A DNA stretch of 28,366 nt from an uncultured Gammaproteobacteria bacterium (GTDB lineage Bacteria > Patescibacteriota > Patescibacteriia > UBA10025 > JAHIVO01): NCBI GenBank assembly GCA_964493105.1, contig CAZBNI010000001.1:1-28366 (forward strand). Direction: 5' to 3'. The notes under the pieces are model-generated. The model saw only the letters and a list, made by a program, of their open reading frames with translations, was not told the origin of the DNA and made no database searches. Made by a program: the position numbers and the translations under genes. This document shows positions 1-24,369 of this stretch, one piece after another (the first letter of the stretch is position 1; the number at the start of each line of letters is the position of its first letter).

Positions 1-3000
1 CATTATAAACACTTCCAGAAGTAACACAAGTAACACCGCTGTTGTCTGCACAAACACCACCCAAGGAATAATCTCCAGTTGTAATATCAGTCGTGCAAAA
101 AGCCATTGTGGAATAAGAATTGCCACAGCCAGCATTAGAGCAGGCGCTATAAAAAGCGCTGCTGGTTCTTTGGCAGATATGCCCAGAAGTTGTACAGCCA
201 CTGCTCGTGCAAAGCCCGTTTTGTACAAAATTACCACCCGCATCACTATCACAAGAATCACCGGAAGTAGAAGTACAAGCAGAATAAGTTGGATCAGTCC
301 CATTAGTACAACTCGTGCCACAATTTGTCCTAAATTCATTAGTATAATCACAACCAAACGTTCCACCGGTCGCCGTTGGTGTACTATCATAACAAGTACC
401 AGCTGCAGCATTATTATATGCAGTTGTATTAGTACTACAACCATAACCAGATTTATTAATACCGCTTTCATAATCACATGATGCCCGGCAATAACCATTC
501 ACACACAATGCTCCACAATCCGCACAATCCGTACTACCATTACTGCAAGCATCGCCCACACTGCATCCGCCGCCGACACCGCAAGTTTCAGGATCATCAT
601 CCCCTTCGCAGCATGACTCGCCTGAATTCCAAGTATAAGCTGTATCTAATTCACTATCACAACGGTATGATTGAGATCCCGAAGATGCACAACAATTCAA
701 ACATGCAGACTCCGAAGAGTCACAATCAGCACATGTGGCATTGCGTTCACCTGAATCACAAACTCCAAAATAACAACAAGATTGACCATCAATACACCCT
801 CCTACCACAGATCCGCAAACAGCAAGCAAAGGCTCGTAAATCTGGTTTTGGTTTTCACTTTGCTTCATTTCATATTCATAAGGAGCCATGGTAATATTGT
901 TGTTTATGGCATTGTAAACATCCAGCCTTGAAATGCTTATCTCGGTAACGGGATCTATATTGTATGAAATTGGTTCGCCGGTACTTCTAAGTCTGTACTT
1001 GAGATCCAAAGGGGAAAGGTCTTCATTCTCAAGCACCAAAGCCGCCCCCGCAGAAACCATTGGAGTACTTACAGATGTTCCAGAAACCTCTCCGTATCCC
1101 CCGTTTAATAAAGGAACGTTAATATTTTGTCCAGGAGCCAATACATCAGTAAATTCATTCAAATTTGCAAAATCAGTCAGAGTGTCTGACTTTGTTGTTG
1201 ATGATACGCGGGTGGCCTTTGTTGCGCACGAAGGCGACTTCATGTTTTCAGACGCATCATTTCCTGTTGCCGCGGCAACAAAAATTCCTAAATCAACGGC
1301 TTCATTAACCAATTCGGCGACAACATTTGAATCACATGCTCCCAAATAATTCCCCGCCCCGATACTGAAAGAAATAATATCAGATCCTTGATCGATGCAC
1401 CATTGTAATCCCTGCAAAACATCGCTTTCATAACCAATTCCATTTGCGTCCATAACTTTCGCCACCAGCAATTCAGAACCGGATGCTATCCGTGAAACAA
1501 CTCCCGCAACACTTGTCCCGTGCCCATGGTCATCAAGCGGATCCTCGTCGTCATTAATAAAATCGTAACCAGTCACATAATTTGTTATGGCCTCATGATT
1601 ATAATCCACGCCCGTATCCAAAATGCAAATTTTCATTCCAGTACCTTCTTGACCGTCAGGCCTATCCTCTGGCAAGGCGCGAATCAGCGGAATAGCTTCA
1701 TCAAGCACTAAATCAACCGGCTGATTAACGCTAATAGTCTCTACCTGATCGTTGGCCAACAGCTGCTCCAGACCTTCCTTGTTAACAACGCCACTTTGGT
1801 ATTCTCCGTTCTTTTCGACTTGCTTAAAGTCCTGCTGACTAATATCCAGCTGCTTATCAGGAATTCGCAGCTTGGTAATTATTTTCGGTGATTCTCCAGC
1901 GGCTACCTTATCCAATATTTCATTCTCCACCTTACCCTGCTTCAAAGCCACGTTCCATTGGTGATCTAAGTTGACTTCTCCATCCGAGGTGATTAATACG
2001 GTCGGACCAAAACTGTAAAAAGTTCCCTCGGGCTGATCTGAAATAAATTGATATTCAAATATGTTGGTAGTGTCCCGTTTTACTTCAATTTGACAAACAA
2101 TATCAAAATAACCAACAGATTCCCCCTCATCATTGTTAATTTGCTCAAGATAACAGTCGCTATCCACGGCTCCAGCATACAGAAATCCGTCTGGCACTCG
2201 TTCGCGTATTTCTCCCACAAAATCCTTATCAGAAACAATCTCCAAATACATGGTATGAAAATAATTTGGATTAATTCTGGTTGGCCCATGACGCTTAACA
2301 ATAACACTGGGTCCTATTTCTGCAGAAAAACTGCGGGTAACTGTCTGCGTACTGCCTTGATAGGTAGCTGTTAACTCCGCAGTATAATCTCCCTCCAAAT
2401 AAGGAGTATAGGACGCCTCATAATCCGCCTGAGTATAAGCTATATCCTTAATTAAACAATTTTCACTACCACTAATCCCGCCTTCATCTGTGGTCAGGGT
2501 AGTTACCCGACCCTGAGGATCAGTAATTTTGAGTTCTAATTCAGCGTCACAAATAATCCCGCCGTAATCATTAAAAGTGCCCAGTGAAAGCATGGCCGGC
2601 TGTCCGGTTTTGAATATTATTTGATCAACATTTAATACCAGCGTACCCCAGGTAAAATCTTCTACAATCACCTCGCTTTGTCCATCCTGCTCAACTGTCA
2701 AGGCAACGCTATAGCGGCCCGGTTCCTCCAGTTCCATCGCTTCAATCTCATAATCAGTGATTATTTTATTGTCTTCTTCCTTTTTTGTTTCCTTAATATC
2801 AACTTCAACATCCTCACCATCCGCGTTAGTTATTTTTATATCCTTGACAATTCTCTCATTGGAACCAATCCCCAAAAAACCTTTATTCTTAGTATTAACC
2901 TCAATTACTGCTTTATCTGAAATACTGACATCTTTGTCTTTAACCGTTACACTTTCCTTAATTTGCTCAGTAACGGAATTAGGCTCTTCTGCCTCCACTT

Positions 3001-4045
3001 TGATAGCCACACCATCCAAAAAAGCTGTCGATTCTTCGATCCCAGGTACGGCATTATACTTCACCCGAGTACGTAATTCTTCCAAATCTTTGACTTCATT
3101 AACCTTATCAGTTATAGAAAATTCCCAGTACCCATCATTAATAACGTTGCTGGTATCATCCAATAAGGCAAATGAATCAAGCACTTCCCAGGTTTCGCCG
3201 TTGTCTAATGAGTATTCTAAAGTTATTATGTCCTCATTGCTGGCATAACTATCGACCGCCAAGGAAAAAATAAGTTTTACATCTTTTAATAATGCCACTG
3301 AAGGAATAGCTTCCTCTGATTTATAATTATAAGCTTCAAGAGTTGAATCTGTTTCGGAAATAAATTCTCCGCTAACAGCCGACTCTCCTTCATCTGACAC
3401 AGGTTTATTTAAATAGACCGCCGAAATCTTTGTATTAAAATCACTTAAGGGGCTGGTTCCTAAAGCTTCAATATGTTTGGCATTATTGGTACTTTCCCAT
3501 CCTGTTAAATCTGCTGGTTCCAGTGTAACGAAAAGGATATCTTGTGGTTTTTCTTCTGCTTGGGCTAAAAATACATAAGCAAAAAAAGTTACCTGCAATA
3601 CAACAAAGGTAAAGGCAACTAGCGAAGACGAGTAGACAAACACTGAAAATTTACGGCTAATAAAAAAGAGTTTGGCGTTATTCCATGAAAAGCCTGGCTG
3701 GATTACGTATGATCTTTCCTGAGGTTCTGCAACCGGTGCTTGTTTCGGCTCTTCTGGCTGCGTAACCTGACCAAATGACTCTTTGCGAAATGCTGAGGGC
3801 GTTTTCAGATACATCGCCTTGATTGTGTCCCGGTCATACCTTCGATCACGCCGAGCTCCAATACGAAGTGCTTTTAGTTTTCCTGCCTTATCCCAATTGC
3901 GCAATGTATTTGGATGAACACCAAAAATCTCGCTCACTTGTTCAATAGTGAGTAGTTTTGGCAGGGCATTAAAATCAACTGATTCCTCCTTTTTCTCGCC
4001 TTTTCTGCCGGTGAATAGTTCCCTTGCCTTTTTTAAAAATAGCAT
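1..4045 (-). CDS. Giant membrane-anchored protein, 3'-truncated (>1348 aa): MerR/excisionase-type HTH + TM/signal segment + acidic beta-rich ectodomain + propeptide + S8 subtilisin-like protease + Cys-rich region
   Basis: Hand translation from ATG 4045 is open to the window edge; it is absent from the ORF track, probably because no stop lies in the window. HTH: LLTIEQVSEIFGVHPNTLRNWDKAGKLKALRIGARRDRRY. Hydrophobic span: RKFSVFVYSSSLVAFTFVVLQVTFFAYVFLAQA. S8 motifs: ILDTGVD (D810), HGHGTSVAG (H842), AAATGND (N929), SGTSVSTPMV (S991). 36 Cys in the last ~272 codons. Confidence 0.92.
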   Translation of the reverse strand, partial: MLFLKKARELFTGRKGEKKEESVDFNALPKLLTIEQVSEIFGVHPNTLRNWDKAGKLKALRIGARRDRRYDRDTIKAMYLKTPSAFRKESFGQVTQPEEPKQAPVAEPQERSYVIQPGFSWNNAKLFFISRKFSVFVYSSSLVAFTFVVLQVTFFAYVFLAQAEEKPQDILFVTLEPADLTGWESTNNAKHIEALGTSPLSDFNTKISAVYLNKPVSDEGESAVSGEFISETDSTLEAYNYKSEEAIPSVALLKDVKLIFSLAVDSYASNEDIITLEYSLDNGETWEVLDSFALLDDTSNVINDGYWEFSITDKVNEVKDLEELRTRVKYNAVPGIEESTAFLDGVAIKVEAEEPNSVTEQIKESVTVKDKDVSISDKAVIEVNTKNKGFLGIGSNERIVKDIKITNADGEDVEVDIKETKKEEDNKIITDYEIEAMELEEPGRYSVALTVEQDGQSEVIVEDFTWGTLVLNVDQIIFKTGQPAMLSLGTFNDYGGIICDAELELKITDPQGRVTTLTTDEGGISGSENCLIKDIAYTQADYEASYTPYLEGDYTAELTATYQGSTQTVTRSFSAEIGPSVIVKRHGPTRINPNYFHTMYLEIVSDKDFVGEIRERVPDGFLYAGAVDSDCYLEQINNDEGESVGYFDIVCQIEVKRDTTNIFEYQFISDQPEGTFYSFGPTVLITSDGEVNLDHQWNVALKQGKVENEILDKVAAGESPKIITKLRIPDKQLDISQQDFKQVEKNGEYQSGVVNKEGLEQLLANDQVETISVNQPVDLVLDEAIPLIRALPEDRPDGQEGTGMKICILDTGVDYNHEAITNYVTGYDFINDDEDPLDDHGHGTSVAGVVSRIASGSELLVAKVMDANGIGYESDVLQGLQWCIDQGSDIISFSIGAGNYLGACDSNVVAELVNEAVDLGIFVAAATGNDASENMKSPSCATKATRVSSTTKSDTLTDFANLNEFTDVLAPGQNINVPLLNGGYGEVSGTSVSTPMVSAGAALVLENEDLSPLDLKYRLRSTGEPISYNIDPVTEISISRLDVYNAINNNITMAPYEYEMKQSENQNQIYEPLLAVCGSVVGGCIDGQSCCYFGVCDSGERNATCADCDSSESACLNCCASSGSQSYRCDSELDTAYTWNSGESCCEGDDDPETCGVGGGCSVGDACSNGSTDCADCGALCVNGYCRASCDYESGINKSGYGCSTNTTAYNNAAAGTCYDSTPTATGGTFGCDYTNEFRTNCGTSCTNGTDPTYSACTSTSGDSCDSDAGGNFVQNGLCTSSGCTTSGHICQRTSSAFYSACSNAGCGNSYSTMAFCTTDITTGDYSLGGVCADNSGVTCVTSGSVYN

Positions 4046-4121
4046 ATCTGGCACGGGTTTGTACTAAATTGTACTTAGATTAGGGGAAAAACAAACCTTA
4101 CTTACCAAAAATTACAAAATA

Positions 4122-4150
4122 AGTATATCACAAAAAGGCACTCTTGTCCA
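4122..4150 (-). promoter_or_regulatory. sigma70 promoter for the HTH-protease gene
   Basis: TGGACA-N17-TATACT with extended -10 TGn, about 75 nt upstream of ATG 4045. Confidence 0.7.
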
Positions 4151-4213: not shown

Positions 4214-4414
4214 CTACTTAAGGGCGTTGGCTATGCTTTCGAGCTCATTGGCAAGTTGTTCTGCGAGTTCCTCAGGAGTAAATATTTTATTTTCTCCCGT
4301 ATGCGCACCGAGTGCGGATGTATTGCCCTCTGCGCTTGCAATTAGACGATATTGATCAAGCAAGAGCATTCCACTGTTAATAGTATCTACTATTTGCCGA
4401 AAGGATTTTGCCAT
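4214..4414 (-). CDS. Small hypothetical protein (66 aa, MAKSFRQIVD...ANALK)
   Basis: Strong SD AAAGGAG just before ATG 4414, with its own promoter and terminator. The ORF-track start at 4540 runs through a terminator and is unlikely. Confidence 0.65.
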   Translation of the reverse strand: MAKSFRQIVDTINSGMLLLDQYRLIASAEGNTSALGAHTGENKIFTPEELAEQLANELESIANALK

Positions 4415-4460
4415 GGCGTCTCCTTTCAAAAAAAGATTGCGATTTGTATTTTGGAAATTC

Positions 4461-4488
4461 ATCATACCATGGTCAATCAAGCTGTCAA
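4461..4488 (-). promoter_or_regulatory. sigma70 promoter for the 66-aa orphan
   Basis: TTGACA-N16-TATGAT with TGG extended -10. Confidence 0.65.
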
Positions 4489-4504
4489 AACGCCCTATTG
4501 ATGT

Positions 4505-4539
4505 AATAAAAAATGCCCGTCTCGTTTCCAAGGCGGGCA
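4505..4539 (-). terminator. Intrinsic terminator after plsX
   Basis: UGCCCG-C-CUUG-GAAA-CGAG-A-CGGGCA hairpin followed by UUUUUUAUU. Confidence 0.8.
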
Positions 4540-4558
4540 CACGTTTAATGTATTTGTA

Positions 4559-7364: not shown

Positions 7365-8045
7365 TTATTCGCCCGATGGCTCAAAGAGCACACGACGCAC
7401 AACTGTCATTTCTTTGCTATGCTCCTTTGCAGCCGATATTTTAATCTCATTAATACCCTCCGTCAAATTGACTGATGCAGAGAAACTCCCATTGGGCTCT
7501 AATATAACTTCCTTACCATTGATCGTCAGCAACGCTTCGGGCATCGTACTACCACTGACTACGATCGTCGTTTGTTGAACTGTCAATAAATCTTCTGGTG
7601 CTAAAACGATAAGGTCAGGTGGAGAAAAAATATTACTGATTTCGAATCCGACATAGACCAAACATGCTGTAATAATCATGCCAATAATAATACTTCGATT
7701 CAATTTTGGCGTGATTATTAATTTTGGTACTGAACTTTTTGGAGTAAAAAAATTGGACTTAAAACCATGCTGCAAAACTTTTTTCTCTTGCTGATCATAC
7801 AGCTCGAGCACAAAATCGCTGCTTACCTTGAGGAAGGTTGCGTATTTTTTTAAAAAACTCTCTATATAAACTGGTCCTGGCAAATGCGAATAATTGCCAT
7901 CTTCGAGCGCAGCCAAATAATCCTTACTAATCTGTGTTGCTTCTGCTGCCTCTTTTAGGCTAATATTAGCCTCTTCTCGCACTTTACGTAATCGCTCGCC
8001 AAGCGTTCTAGTGCGCTGTACTTCTCGTTTTTTAAATGCTGTCAT
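7365..8045 (-). CDS. RodZ-like HTH_25 membrane protein with C-terminal Ig-like domain
   Basis: TLGERLRKVREEANISL...YLAALEDGNYSHLPGPVYIESFLKKYATFL, one TM, then VSGSTMPEALLTINGK...LTEGINEI; located between ftsK and recA. Confidence 0.85.
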   Translation of the reverse strand: MTAFKKREVQRTRTLGERLRKVREEANISLKEAAEATQISKDYLAALEDGNYSHLPGPVYIESFLKKYATFLKVSSDFVLELYDQQEKKVLQHGFKSNFFTPKSSVPKLIITPKLNRSIIIGMIITACLVYVGFEISNIFSPPDLIVLAPEDLLTVQQTTIVVSGSTMPEALLTINGKEVILEPNGSFSASVNLTEGINEIKISAAKEHSKEMTVVRRVLFEPSGE

Positions 8046-23208: not shown

Positions 23209-24369
23209 TTACTGCTTTAGTACGTCTACTTTATCCAACTTTTCCCAAGGAAATTCAACGTCGGTTCTGCCAAAGTGTCCGTATGCTGCCGTTTTTTCAT
23301 AGATTGGTTGCTTCAGGTTTAACTCTTCTATGATATCAGCAGGCTTGATTGGAAAATTTGCAATCACCAGCTTTTCAATCTCCTCGTCAGTAATTGTACC
23401 AGTACCAAACGTATTGACCATAACTGAAACAGGCTGCGCAACACCAATCGCGTATGCCAACTGAACCTCGCACTGCTTCGCGAGTTTTGCCGCAATAATA
23501 TTCTTAGCAATATACCGTGCAACATACGAAGCGCTGCGATCTACTTTGGTAATACATTTTCCCGAAAAACAGCCGCCACCATGTGCCCCATACCCGCCAT
23601 AGGTATCAACAATAATCTTTCTGCCAGTCAGCCCAACATCTGCAGGAGGACCGCCAATCAAAAACTTACCAGTTGAGTTAATAAACGTCTCAATGTCATC
23701 ATGGTACCAATTACCAAGTACTGGTTTAATAACGCGCTTTTTGATATCTTTGCGCAGCTGCCGCATAGCAATGTCTTCTGAATGGTGTGCGGCAATCACA
23801 ACAGTCGTCACGCGTTGTGGTTTACCATCAAGGTATTCAATCGTAACCTGCGACTTACCATCCGGGCGCAGATACGGAAGCGTACCGTCTTTGCGAACTT
23901 CCGAAAGACGACGGGCGAGCTTATGGGCCAATGAAATCGGAAGTGGCATCAACTCTTCAGTTTCATCACATGCATACCCAAACATCAGGCCCTGGTCACC
24001 AGCGCCCTGCTCTTCATAATCTCCTGTGCCGTCAACGCCCTGTGCAATATCAGGCGACTGCTCATGCAGTGTGACGATCACTCCAATATCTTTATAACAA
24101 AAACCATGCTCCGGTCTGCTGTAGCCGATCTGCTTCAGGGTTCGGCGGACAACTTTCTGGATATCAACATATGCCTTGGTACGTGCTTCTCCACCGACCA
24201 TAACCAAGCCAGTCGTGGCAAAACATTCAATACCTGCGTGTGTATCAGGATCTTGTTTGAGCATCTCGTCATAAATAGCATCTGAGATTTGATCACACAC
24301 TTTATCTGGGTGTCCTTCGGTAACTGATTCTGAGGTAAACATTTTTTTTCCTTTTGTTCTGCTGATCAT
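23209..24369 (-). CDS. metK: S-adenosylmethionine synthetase
   Basis: [61 protein letters not shown]. Confidence 0.99.

Follow-up and report, generated by a model that had tools for sequence, protein, structure and literature searches.

The window analyzed here, the whole 28,366-bp contig CAZBNI010000001.1, carries at one end the 5′ part of a gene for a giant envelope protein of a Patescibacteria (candidate phyla radiation, CPR) bacterium. The gene is read on the minus strand from an ATG at position 4045 to base 2, through 1348 codons without a stop, and is truncated where the contig ends; upstream, the frame is closed by a stop at 4066–4064, and the sole alternative start is a GTG at 4054. 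An original prediction, made from the letters of the window, had described this single 1348-codon frame as missed by the list of open reading frames (ORFs). This is correct, and the frame is missing from the list because it runs off the end of the sequence. A full-length search returned P0002 (2047 aa), which is 53% identical over 96% of the query (52.7% across aa 1–1288) and also carries the HTH and S8 domains discussed below, and the relatives suggest that the complete window protein has at least 2,000 residues, possibly about 3,600. Throughout the family the order from N- to C-terminus is the same: a basic N-terminus, a helix-turn-helix (HTH) domain of the BldC/Xis type, a flexible linker, an export or anchor helix with an A-x-A motif, a stalk of β-sandwich domains, and a variable payload, which in the window includes a subtilase (peptidase S8) domain (Table 1). 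The topology is plausibly N-in/C-out. Family members uphold the prediction of an HTH, one hydrophobic span and a huge ectodomain in one conserved polypeptide, while the phrase “giant subtilisin protease” holds for the protein, which is giant, but not for the S8 domain itself, which is of normal size. As argued below, the CPR giants with a BldC/Xis-type HTH at their head form a family of surface proteins that is probably autoregulatory, and the head possibly lies in a cleavable signal peptide.

Head, helix, stalk and payload

Pfam, whose matches are above gathering scores unless called sub-threshold, recognizes HTH_17 at aa 31–77 (34.5 bits versus a cut-off of 27) and MerR at aa 33–70 (33.5 bits versus 28.2), with MerR_1 also above its gathering score. 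The closest solved proteins by sequence are mycobacteriophage Pukovnik Xis (4j2n) and Streptomyces BldC (6amk/6ama), at 38–41% identity. The AlphaFold2 (AF2) model of aa 31–81 has a pLDDT >92, and Foldseek places it at a root-mean-square deviation (rmsd) of 1.4 Å from Xis and a TM-score of 0.88 to BldC; superposition on Xis and BldC gave rmsd values of 1.1–2.4 Å, with TM-scores of 0.80–0.88 to 4j2n and 6amk. RacA, a protein with a MerR-like winged HTH, is also among the structural matches. There is no MerR coiled-coil dimerization helix or effector domain, the helix at 72–91 being followed by a low-complexity linker of low model confidence. Pfam and the AF2 fold both bear out the MerR/excisionase-like HTH of the original prediction, which falls within the HTH_17/MerR winged-HTH class as a minimal domain of the BldC/Xis type. 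Two neighboring assignments were rejected: that of a classical MerR regulator, for lack of the coiled coil and effector domain and with a promoter spacer of 17 bp rather than 19–20 bp, and that of a ToxR-like regulator in the strict sense, as the domain is HTH_17/MerR and the Pfam scan gave no Trans_reg_C match.

When 28 divergent members are aligned, the HTH is the best-conserved part of the whole protein, with 13 invariant residues (P29, H44, N46, T47, R49, W51, D52, L57, R61, G63, R65, D67, and R68). In BldC, which binds with one protomer per 9-bp direct repeat, T27, T29, and K33 touch phosphates, W31 kinks the DNA, K26 and R30 read bases, and the wing residues H46, R47, and R48 enter the minor groove (PMC5859096). 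T27, T29, K33, W31, and K26 align with T47, R49, K53, W51, and N46 of the window protein, and R30, H46, R47, and R48 with N50, D67, R68, and R69. Six of these equivalents (N46, T47, R49, W51, D67, and R68) never vary in the alignment and R69 hardly does, and the basic wing RxDRRY is conserved. Given the conservation of the BldC contact positions and the match in fold, the HTH looks competent to bind DNA.

The predicted Pro/Gln/Glu linker is present and is rich in P, E, K, and Q. Beyond it, hydropathy reveals one strong hydrophobic span at aa 132–163, in agreement with the single hydrophobic segment foreseen; two further 19-residue windows above the threshold lie within globular domains. The span is flanked by K/R on its N side and followed by acidic residues. 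In at least 90% of the 28 divergent members, A163 is conserved at the −1 position of a potential signal-peptidase site; nearly every member has A, V, I, or L at −3, and the residue after −1 is acidic or polar. The corresponding c-regions of a divergent clade of the family are textbook-like (...FQPSRHALA/D and ...TWPSERALA/D), and the secreted neighbors of the giant gene in L001, the locus of P0002, have putative cleavage sites of a similar style.

The ectodomain is acidic, as predicted, with 68 D+E versus 28 K+R in aa 166–480. The AF2 model of aa 164–683 (pLDDT 80) is an all-β chain of sandwiches whose best Foldseek matches are the Sap S-layer protein, PrgB Ig-like domains, complement C3/C5, and the macroglobulin (MG) domains of bacterial α2-macroglobulin. 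The “macroglobulin-like” segment of the prediction is thus sustained as far as the MG/Ig-like sandwiches of the model go, but the Pfam matches to Filamin and MG2 are sub-threshold only and a thioester was not found. Membership of the α2-macroglobulin/complement C3 family was rejected, since no C[GLAS]EQ thioester motif occurs in the window protein or its relatives. We found no recognizable sensor domain in the ectodomain, the conserved part of which is the structural β-sandwich stalk.

Peptidase_S8 matches at aa 801–1022 (E 1e-34, cut-off 21.8 bits); of the four profiles proposed for a HMMER check, three, HTH_17, MerR_1, and Peptidase_S8, score above their cut-offs. The motifs ILDTG (D810), HGHGT (H842), GND (N929, the oxyanion residue), and SGTS (S991) are canonical, and among solved structures subtilisins match best (E 7e-31). 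The complete triad and oxyanion residue that had been read from the sequence are confirmed, and the protease looks intact and active. The NCBIfam labels mycosin, PatA, and dentilisin score far under their cut-offs and were rejected; the type VII secretion mycosin model (TIGR03921), at 95.9 bits versus an equivalog cut-off of 278.75, reflects generic S8 similarity only. An I9 propeptide acting as intramolecular chaperone is typical of S8 proteases, though not universal. The “propeptide-like stretch” of the prediction does not qualify as one, as the Inhibitor_I9 profile gave no match in aa 690–810 even at E≤10, and no other family was detected there. The Cys-rich surface part is real, with 36 Cys in the last 288 residues, and Pfam finds no family in aa 1061–1348. 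P0002 continues for about 750 residues past the region aligned to this tail, much of them repetitive and G/S/T/N-rich.

Among the family members examined, S8 is found only in the window protein, P0002, and the partial P0003, all of which also have the HTH. P0004–P0008 combine the HTH and a stalk of the window type with different C-terminal parts, and in other members, modules that are His/Thr-rich or of other kinds lead into long G/S/T/N-rich repetitive regions. Because the HTH-helix-stalk head stays the same and only one sub-clade has S8, the protease is an interchangeable effector on a common chassis and not part of a conserved HTH-protease circuit. The suggested coupling of HTH and protease is therefore not supported, and neither is signaling through self-cleavage, as an extracellular S8 domain alone cannot free a cytoplasmic one. 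S8 domains, with self-processing suggested, have been described in some other giant proteins (bioRxiv 10.1101/2023.11.21.568195).

Neither an LPxTG sortase signal nor a C-terminal transmembrane segment was found in P0002 or at the C-termini of P0021, P0022, P0024, and P0025, the last four of which may be incomplete; the C-terminus of the window protein lies beyond the contig. These four proteins end in a conserved “...YIANI..TEAG.Y...I.YI.T..F” domain that recurs in a protein of about 350 residues (354 aa) encoded just downstream in L001, and this domain could keep the giants on the surface via co-assembly. In L001 (10001–21000) the P0002 gene also overlaps by 10 nt a 1621-aa ORF, which repeats the C-terminal modules of P0002 and ends in the same C-terminal domain; possibly both derive from a single protein of about 3,660 aa that a frameshift or slippage has divided.

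A word-index search with the head alone gave one relative. A profile of the first ~215 residues was run against 1.84 billion representatives, and the top 150 matches examined include about 25 giants of 2,000–6,700 aa, all in one order: basic N-terminus, HTH, short linker, hydrophobic span, and an “L.P..C.GW.....A..ID......F...NSA” module. The HTH-helix-stalk head occurs at no fewer than 18 independent Patescibacteria loci and in about 20 more divergent giants, and at 11 genome loci the HTH is closely preceded by an in-frame stop. When species-representative genomes were scanned, the close relatives fell within Patescibacteria, one of them on a closed 1.31-Mb Kerfeldbacteria chromosome (L006), and from the closest loci the window bacterium is assigned to Patescibacteria, near Kerfeldbacteria. 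Homologues do not, then, consistently lack the HTH, and the proposed search of CPR relatives for the HTH and transmembrane head on other ectodomains succeeded: the head is constant and the payloads vary. A 3.3-kb contig with the close orthologue P0003 (L005) is deposited in a “Zixibacteria” bin, probably a binning error, because all other close relatives are Patescibacteria. Two further proteins have tandem HTH copies, four in P0027 (325 aa) and eight, followed by a hydrophobic span, in P0028 (623 aa); such proteins would suit arrays of direct repeats.

A metagenome scan seeded with stalk motifs only yielded 319 relatives; the best 80 were taken, and 74 have a defined N-terminus. The eight closest of the 74, which are 27–44% identical to the query along most of its length (tblastn E 9e-103 to 6e-47), all carry the BldC-like HTH. 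At least three of the 74 (L108, L139, and L155) have different, tandem HTH_17 domains of another subtype before the hydrophobic span, and the members with such other heads (these three, L114, and L109) also include one with a weak HTH_17 and, in L109, a transposase-type HTH_28/HTH_23. The presence of different N-terminal HTHs within the stalk superfamily indicates that a DNA-binding head was recruited more than once. The remaining N-termini inspected (about 34 were read) are mostly a signal peptide or a basic extension, then a hydrophobic segment and A-x-A, which in L090/L091, L096, L131, and L135 stands just ahead of a “GW...NSA”-like module (for example, ...NYVFASA/KENP...CGGW in L090/L091). 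A plain signal peptide with A-x-A hence takes up, in the HTH-less homologues, the position of the window's hydrophobic span, which by this alignment is the positional equivalent of a signal-peptide core. The idea of a split gene, with a separate HTH gene beside the HTH-less homologues, was rejected, being true at only 2 of 72 loci.

A two-block element at the promoter

A consensus scan upstream of the gene predicts a promoter with 10 of 12 matches, a 17-nt spacer, and an extended TG. The same promoter-like arrangement, TTGGACA-N17-(TG)TATAAT, lies upstream of the window gene (4150–4122) and of 12 orthologues. It is followed by two conserved blocks (Table 1). Block 1, with the consensus TTGKTAAGT, begins 12–15 nt past the −10 hexamer in all 13 loci, at 13 nt in nine of them, the window included, and a second copy (≤2 mismatches) lies 9 bp upstream of it in 7 of the 13. 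Written as a regular expression, the pattern of blocks 1 and 2 occurs at just 12 places in the 888 kb compared, each directly upstream of an HTH-giant gene; these are the window and 11 of 13 orthologous loci, the strict pattern missing L009 and L014 (divergent clade).

Of 18 distinct giant loci with the HTH, 16 have the exact block-1 9-mer, as against none of 66 HTH-less stalk homologues (Fisher 2e-15). The 9-mer occurs once in the window, and outside these upstream regions it has chance frequency (1.4e-5 per position). It recurs upstream of stand-alone small HTH genes, which encode 60–130-aa HTH proteins of the BldC-like subfamily from Saccharibacteria, Doudnabacteria, and others, with 9 matches versus 0.30 expected among 64 genes (P 4e-11); in at least five such loci inspected, a −10-like box stands roughly 11–20 nt ahead of the 9-mer. 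The way in which this conserved promoter element accompanies the HTH lends support to the option of autoregulation raised in the original prediction.

The GC-richer divergent clade (L014, L163–L168) keeps both blocks, as YTGGTAAGT ... TTAGCCAAAA, but here at about −55 to −95, ahead of a TTGACA-17-TATAAT promoter, whereas in the window clade the block-1 repeats overlap the predicted transcription start, the promoters of both being consensus predictions only. The regulatory sign may accordingly differ between clades. Since the blocks lie upstream of the promoter in the divergent clade, an RNA model based on the 5′ untranslated region is disfavored and a protein-binding DNA site is favored; the evidence favors the TTGKTAAGT element as a DNA-level site, by association for the BldC-like HTH. 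A structured leader RNA was rejected on other grounds as well: the element matches no Rfam family, RNAalifold recovers no consensus structure for the window clade, folding stability is like that of shuffled sequences (z-scores −0.3 to −1.4), and covariation equals that of shuffled alignments; the leader of the divergent clade showed only a weak helix of invariant bases. L009–L011 have a second, distal exact TTGKTAAGT upstream of the promoter, about 140–150 bp upstream of the proximal site, and the window has a block-2-like CTAACTTAA 41 bp upstream of the −35 hexamer.

Table 1. Features of the giant gene and its upstream region in the window
Feature	Position	Strand	Basis
5′ part of giant surface-protein gene, 1348 codons	1..4045	-	Open frame; orthologue P0002
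Cys-rich, G/S/T-rich region, aa 1061–1348, runs on past contig	2..865	-	36 Cys in 288 aa; aligns with P0002
Subtilase (peptidase S8) domain, aa 801–1060, D810/H842/N929/S991	866..1645	-	Pfam, motifs, structure relatives
Linker before protease, aa 701–800 (“propeptide-like” stretch)	1646..1945	-	Conserved only in S8-bearing orthologues P0002, P0003
Conserved stalk of β-sandwich (Ig/MG-like) domains, aa 164–700	1946..3556	-	Family-wide homology, AF2, Foldseek, weak Filamin/MG2
Juxtamembrane and hydrophobic helix, aa 121–163, ends AQA163/EE	3557..3685	-	Hydropathy, AF2 helix 121–163, A-x-A conservation
Low-complexity P/E/K/Q linker, aa 82–120	3686..3802	-	Length and sequence vary across family; low model pLDDT
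BldC/Xis-type winged HTH, aa 31–81, predicted cytoplasmic	3803..3955	-	Pfam, PDB sequence matches, AF2/Foldseek, invariant residues
Candidate operator block 2, CTAATCTAAG (consensus GCTAACTTAAGC), about 25 bp past block 1	4074..4083	-	Fixed +68 from −35
Candidate operator block 1, TTGGTAAGT (4108–4100), with degenerate copy TTTGTAATT (4118–4110) ahead	4100..4118	-	Position, recurrence
−10-like hexamer TATACT, TG before	4122..4127	-	Consensus scan; TATAxT invariant in promoter alignment
−35-like hexamer TGGACA	4145..4150	-	Consensus scan; conserved in 13 orthologous loci

Proposed autoregulation and its alternatives

We favor, with a probability of about 0.5, the reading that the gene encodes an autoregulated giant surface fibre or protease whose cytoplasmic HTH head binds its own promoter. 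The N-terminus would remain in the cytoplasm while the remainder is exported through Sec. Held at the membrane on a tether of about 40–50 residues, the HTH would either still be attached to the giant or persist as a 163-aa HTH-helix stub after a signal-peptidase cut at AQA163/E164, and would bind the TTGKTAAGT repeats, with their BldC-like 9-bp period, over the transcription start of its own gene. Every molecule made would then feed back on further transcription of its gene, which is very costly. The S8 domain would work outside the cell, on the giant itself or on host or prey surface proteins, and would stand outside the signaling logic.

Several observations weigh against this reading. The base-contacting R30 of BldC aligns with a variable position, N50. 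Shared ancestry partly confounds the association of motif and HTH, the HTH-bearing giants being a clade, and among the stand-alone HTH genes the exact 9-mer is found at only 8 of 64. As the element overlaps the start in one clade and lies upstream in the other, a single repression mechanism cannot fit both. Blocks 1 and 2 form an imperfect inverted repeat, which leaves room for a hairpin or a different binding protein. Finally, the window is without the synteny of other loci, in which a LytR gene, the giant gene, and a gene for a protein of about 350 aa stand together.

The fate of the helix bears on the form that autoregulation would take, and we give signal-peptidase cleavage after A163 about even odds. 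Since the span occupies the signal-peptide position of the HTH-less homologues, the HTH may belong to a cleavable, very long signal peptide. On the other side, P0002, a full-length gene product, has no other transmembrane segment and no LPxTG that we could find; the stretch in the window clade is long, with about 24–31 residues hydrophobic and 29–31 uncharged, and the AF2 helix is unbroken from 121 to A163, two features that disfavor a cut; and the n-region before the span is folded and about 130 aa long. A version of the model that we consider possible but doubtful makes the HTH the folded n-region of a Sec signal and lets the 163-aa stub meter transcription by completed exports: the cut at AQA163/E164 would free the fibre to the surface and leave one stub per export event, and the stub would possibly be freed later from the membrane by an intramembrane protease. 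P0039, P0037, and P0127 are short proteins (138–353 aa) made up of an HTH, one transmembrane segment, and little or no ectodomain, and are natural equivalents of the proposed stub.

One-component signaling of the ToxR/CadC type, the course put forward in the original prediction, in which an uncleaved ectodomain senses host contact or a substrate, or S8 cuts its own chain, and the HTH switches other genes, seems unlikely to us. The combination of a DNA-binding domain, a single transmembrane segment, and an outside domain marks a large known class of regulators (PMC10269533), the flexible linker resembles that of CadC, and the helix, if uncleaved, would be the sole membrane anchor. By the broad definition of transmembrane transcription regulators, a predicted DNA-binding domain with at least one transmembrane segment, the window protein belongs to this class, although the mature protein keeps both only if it is uncleaved at A163. 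However, the head is constant while S8 is limited to one sub-clade, the stalk is structural and offers no recognizable sensor, homologues that share it carry plain signal peptides, and an extracellular protease is unable to release a cytoplasmic domain. Moreover, the block-1 9-mer occurs in the window once, at the gene's own promoter, and elsewhere in the sequence compared only at chance frequency.

We regard as somewhat more improbable a RodZ-like role, in which the HTH is a protein-protein or organizing module that docks the nascent giant to a cytoplasmic partner or fixes its N-in topology. The window does encode a RodZ-like HTH_25 protein, which recalls the RodZ plan, and PilM/T2SSE genes lie near the giant gene in L001 and L002. 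Yet the invariant positions of the HTH are those that contact DNA in BldC, the basic wing is conserved, and the DNA motif co-occurs with the HTH subfamily even in stand-alone 60-aa versions that have nothing to dock.

Improbable, too, and rated below docking, is a chromosome-membrane tether, with the HTH holding its own locus or AT-rich DNA near the translocon during synthesis and export, or handling DNA at host contact. RacA, which anchors DNA to the cell pole, is among the structural matches, and the chains are very long (2,000–6,700 aa); an operator-like site within about 100 bp of the start codon makes binding of the nascent N-terminus in cis geometrically easy. The present data do not separate tethering from autoregulation, but HTH-less homologues of similar length do without such a head, and multiple sites are absent from the sequence compared. 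An assembly or annotation artefact joining a small excisionase-like gene to a secreted-protease gene, conceivable for a metagenome contig when small stand-alone HTH genes of the BldC-like subfamily are common, is excluded for practical purposes, because the join, with its conserved linker and helix, recurs in no fewer than 18 assemblies made independently in several projects, including the closed chromosome L006, and the only stop is upstream of the HTH.

CPR bacteria are host-attached and have tiny genomes with few recognizable regulators, a large coding share of which goes to giant surface proteins. For such cells, a conserved DNA-binding head together with a conserved site at its own promoter provides a concrete model for coupling envelope assembly to transcription. 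The HTH-helix-“C.GW...NSA” head can also serve as a marker for finding and annotating the family, whose members are now labeled merely “helix-turn-helix domain-containing protein” or “S8 family peptidase.”

Neighboring genes and known systems

Upstream of the giant gene, the window contains a 108-aa ORF and the housekeeping genes plsX, recA, a RodZ-like gene, ftsK, rpoC, and rpoB. The 108-aa ORF (4214–4540, minus strand) lies just upstream of the giant gene, has no family match, and has its own strong promoter-like site, TTGACA-16-TATGAT (4488–4461); its relatives are 63–111-aa proteins on a few other contigs. It is followed at about 4199–4165 by a hairpin and T-run, the arms of which, GCCTAACTTAA and AGATTAGGC, resemble block 2. 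The RodZ-like gene (7365–8045, minus strand), between recA and ftsK, encodes a protein of 226 aa that carries HTH_25 at its N-terminus and a Glucodextran_B-like β domain at its C-terminus, and that would be a second, classical HTH-transmembrane-outside protein if a membrane span separates the two domains. Farther on, a SAM riboswitch (RF00162; 24424–24555, minus strand; 69.3 bits versus a gathering score of 44.4) stands directly upstream of the S-adenosylmethionine synthetase gene (23209–24369, minus strand).

At seven divergent loci (L163–L169), a divergent LytR_cpsA_psr (LCP) gene adjoins the HTH-giant gene upstream on the opposite strand, and a gene for a secreted protein of about 330–370 aa (79 aa in L168) lies downstream of the giant. 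L001 and L002 also have a LytR gene on the opposite strand, with one glycosyltransferase gene between it and the giant. In L001 (21325–24430), next after the 354-aa protein come two proteins that each combine a signal peptide with a C-terminal transmembrane segment, and one of the two has a weak match to WxL-interacting proteins (WxLIP_PGBD/fn3_5). The LytR genes, the 1621-aa repeat protein, and the WxL-like neighbors point to a cell-wall-associated fibre system, and the downstream genes look like a fibre or sheet assembly module.

The original prediction held that no characterized protein has this architecture, which is true in detail, but the general class of a DNA-binding domain plus a transmembrane segment had already been surveyed, with 50,302 transmembrane transcription regulators (PMC10269533). 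The text of that survey makes no mention of MerR/HTH_17 heads, CPR bacteria, or peptidase ectodomains, and no giant surface protein with an HTH head was described in any paper that our text searches of the literature reached. The giants of ultra-small bacteria, Omnitrophota and others, resemble the window protein as long extracellular multi-domain proteins of host-dependent bacteria, some with S8, but are reported to have many transmembrane helices and SecA-like domains, and no HTH head is mentioned for them (bioRxiv 10.1101/2023.11.21.568195).

BldC and Xis are close in sequence and predicted fold, in the lack of a coiled coil or effector domain, and in the wing arginines and recognition-helix Trp that are kept; BldC is similar, too, in its 9-bp direct-repeat unit, represented here by a candidate site, although its consensus AATTxxxxC differs from TTGKTAAGT. 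Both are free cytoplasmic proteins of 55–70 aa, whereas the window domain stands at the N-terminus of an exported protein with at least 2,000 residues. ToxR, CadC, and TcpP share the cytoplasmic N-terminal DNA-binding domain, flexible linker, single span, and outside C-terminal part. They have OmpR-type domains and small periplasmic sensors and activate other operons, whereas the window protein combines a BldC-type HTH, a stalk and payload of thousands of residues, an A-x-A motif, and a candidate site at its own promoter.

RodZ likewise follows an HTH-transmembrane-extracytoplasmic β domain plan, but its HTH is of the XRE type (HTH_25) and binds MreB, its outside domain is small, and no DNA motif is associated with it. 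The RsgI-type anti-sigma factors of cellulosome-producing clostridia join a modular surface ectodomain through one transmembrane segment to a cytoplasmic head that controls surface-machinery genes; that head is an anti-sigma domain rather than a DNA-binding one, and the ectodomains are single carbohydrate-binding modules. Signal peptides that are active after cleavage include Rem of mouse mammary tumor virus (MMTV), the arenavirus stable signal peptide, and the enterococcal pheromones cut by Eep from lipoprotein signals; we know of no bacterial example of a folded HTH in a signal-peptide n-region. If the head were indeed cleaved off as part of a signal peptide, this would be a new regulatory principle in bacteria, a counterpart of MMTV Rem that would allow regulation in genome-reduced CPR cells without dedicated sensors. 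What the window protein would have in common with these signal peptides is that a cut between A163 and E164, suggested by the (−3,−1) pattern, would make the n-region of an export signal yield a nucleic-acid-binding polypeptide.

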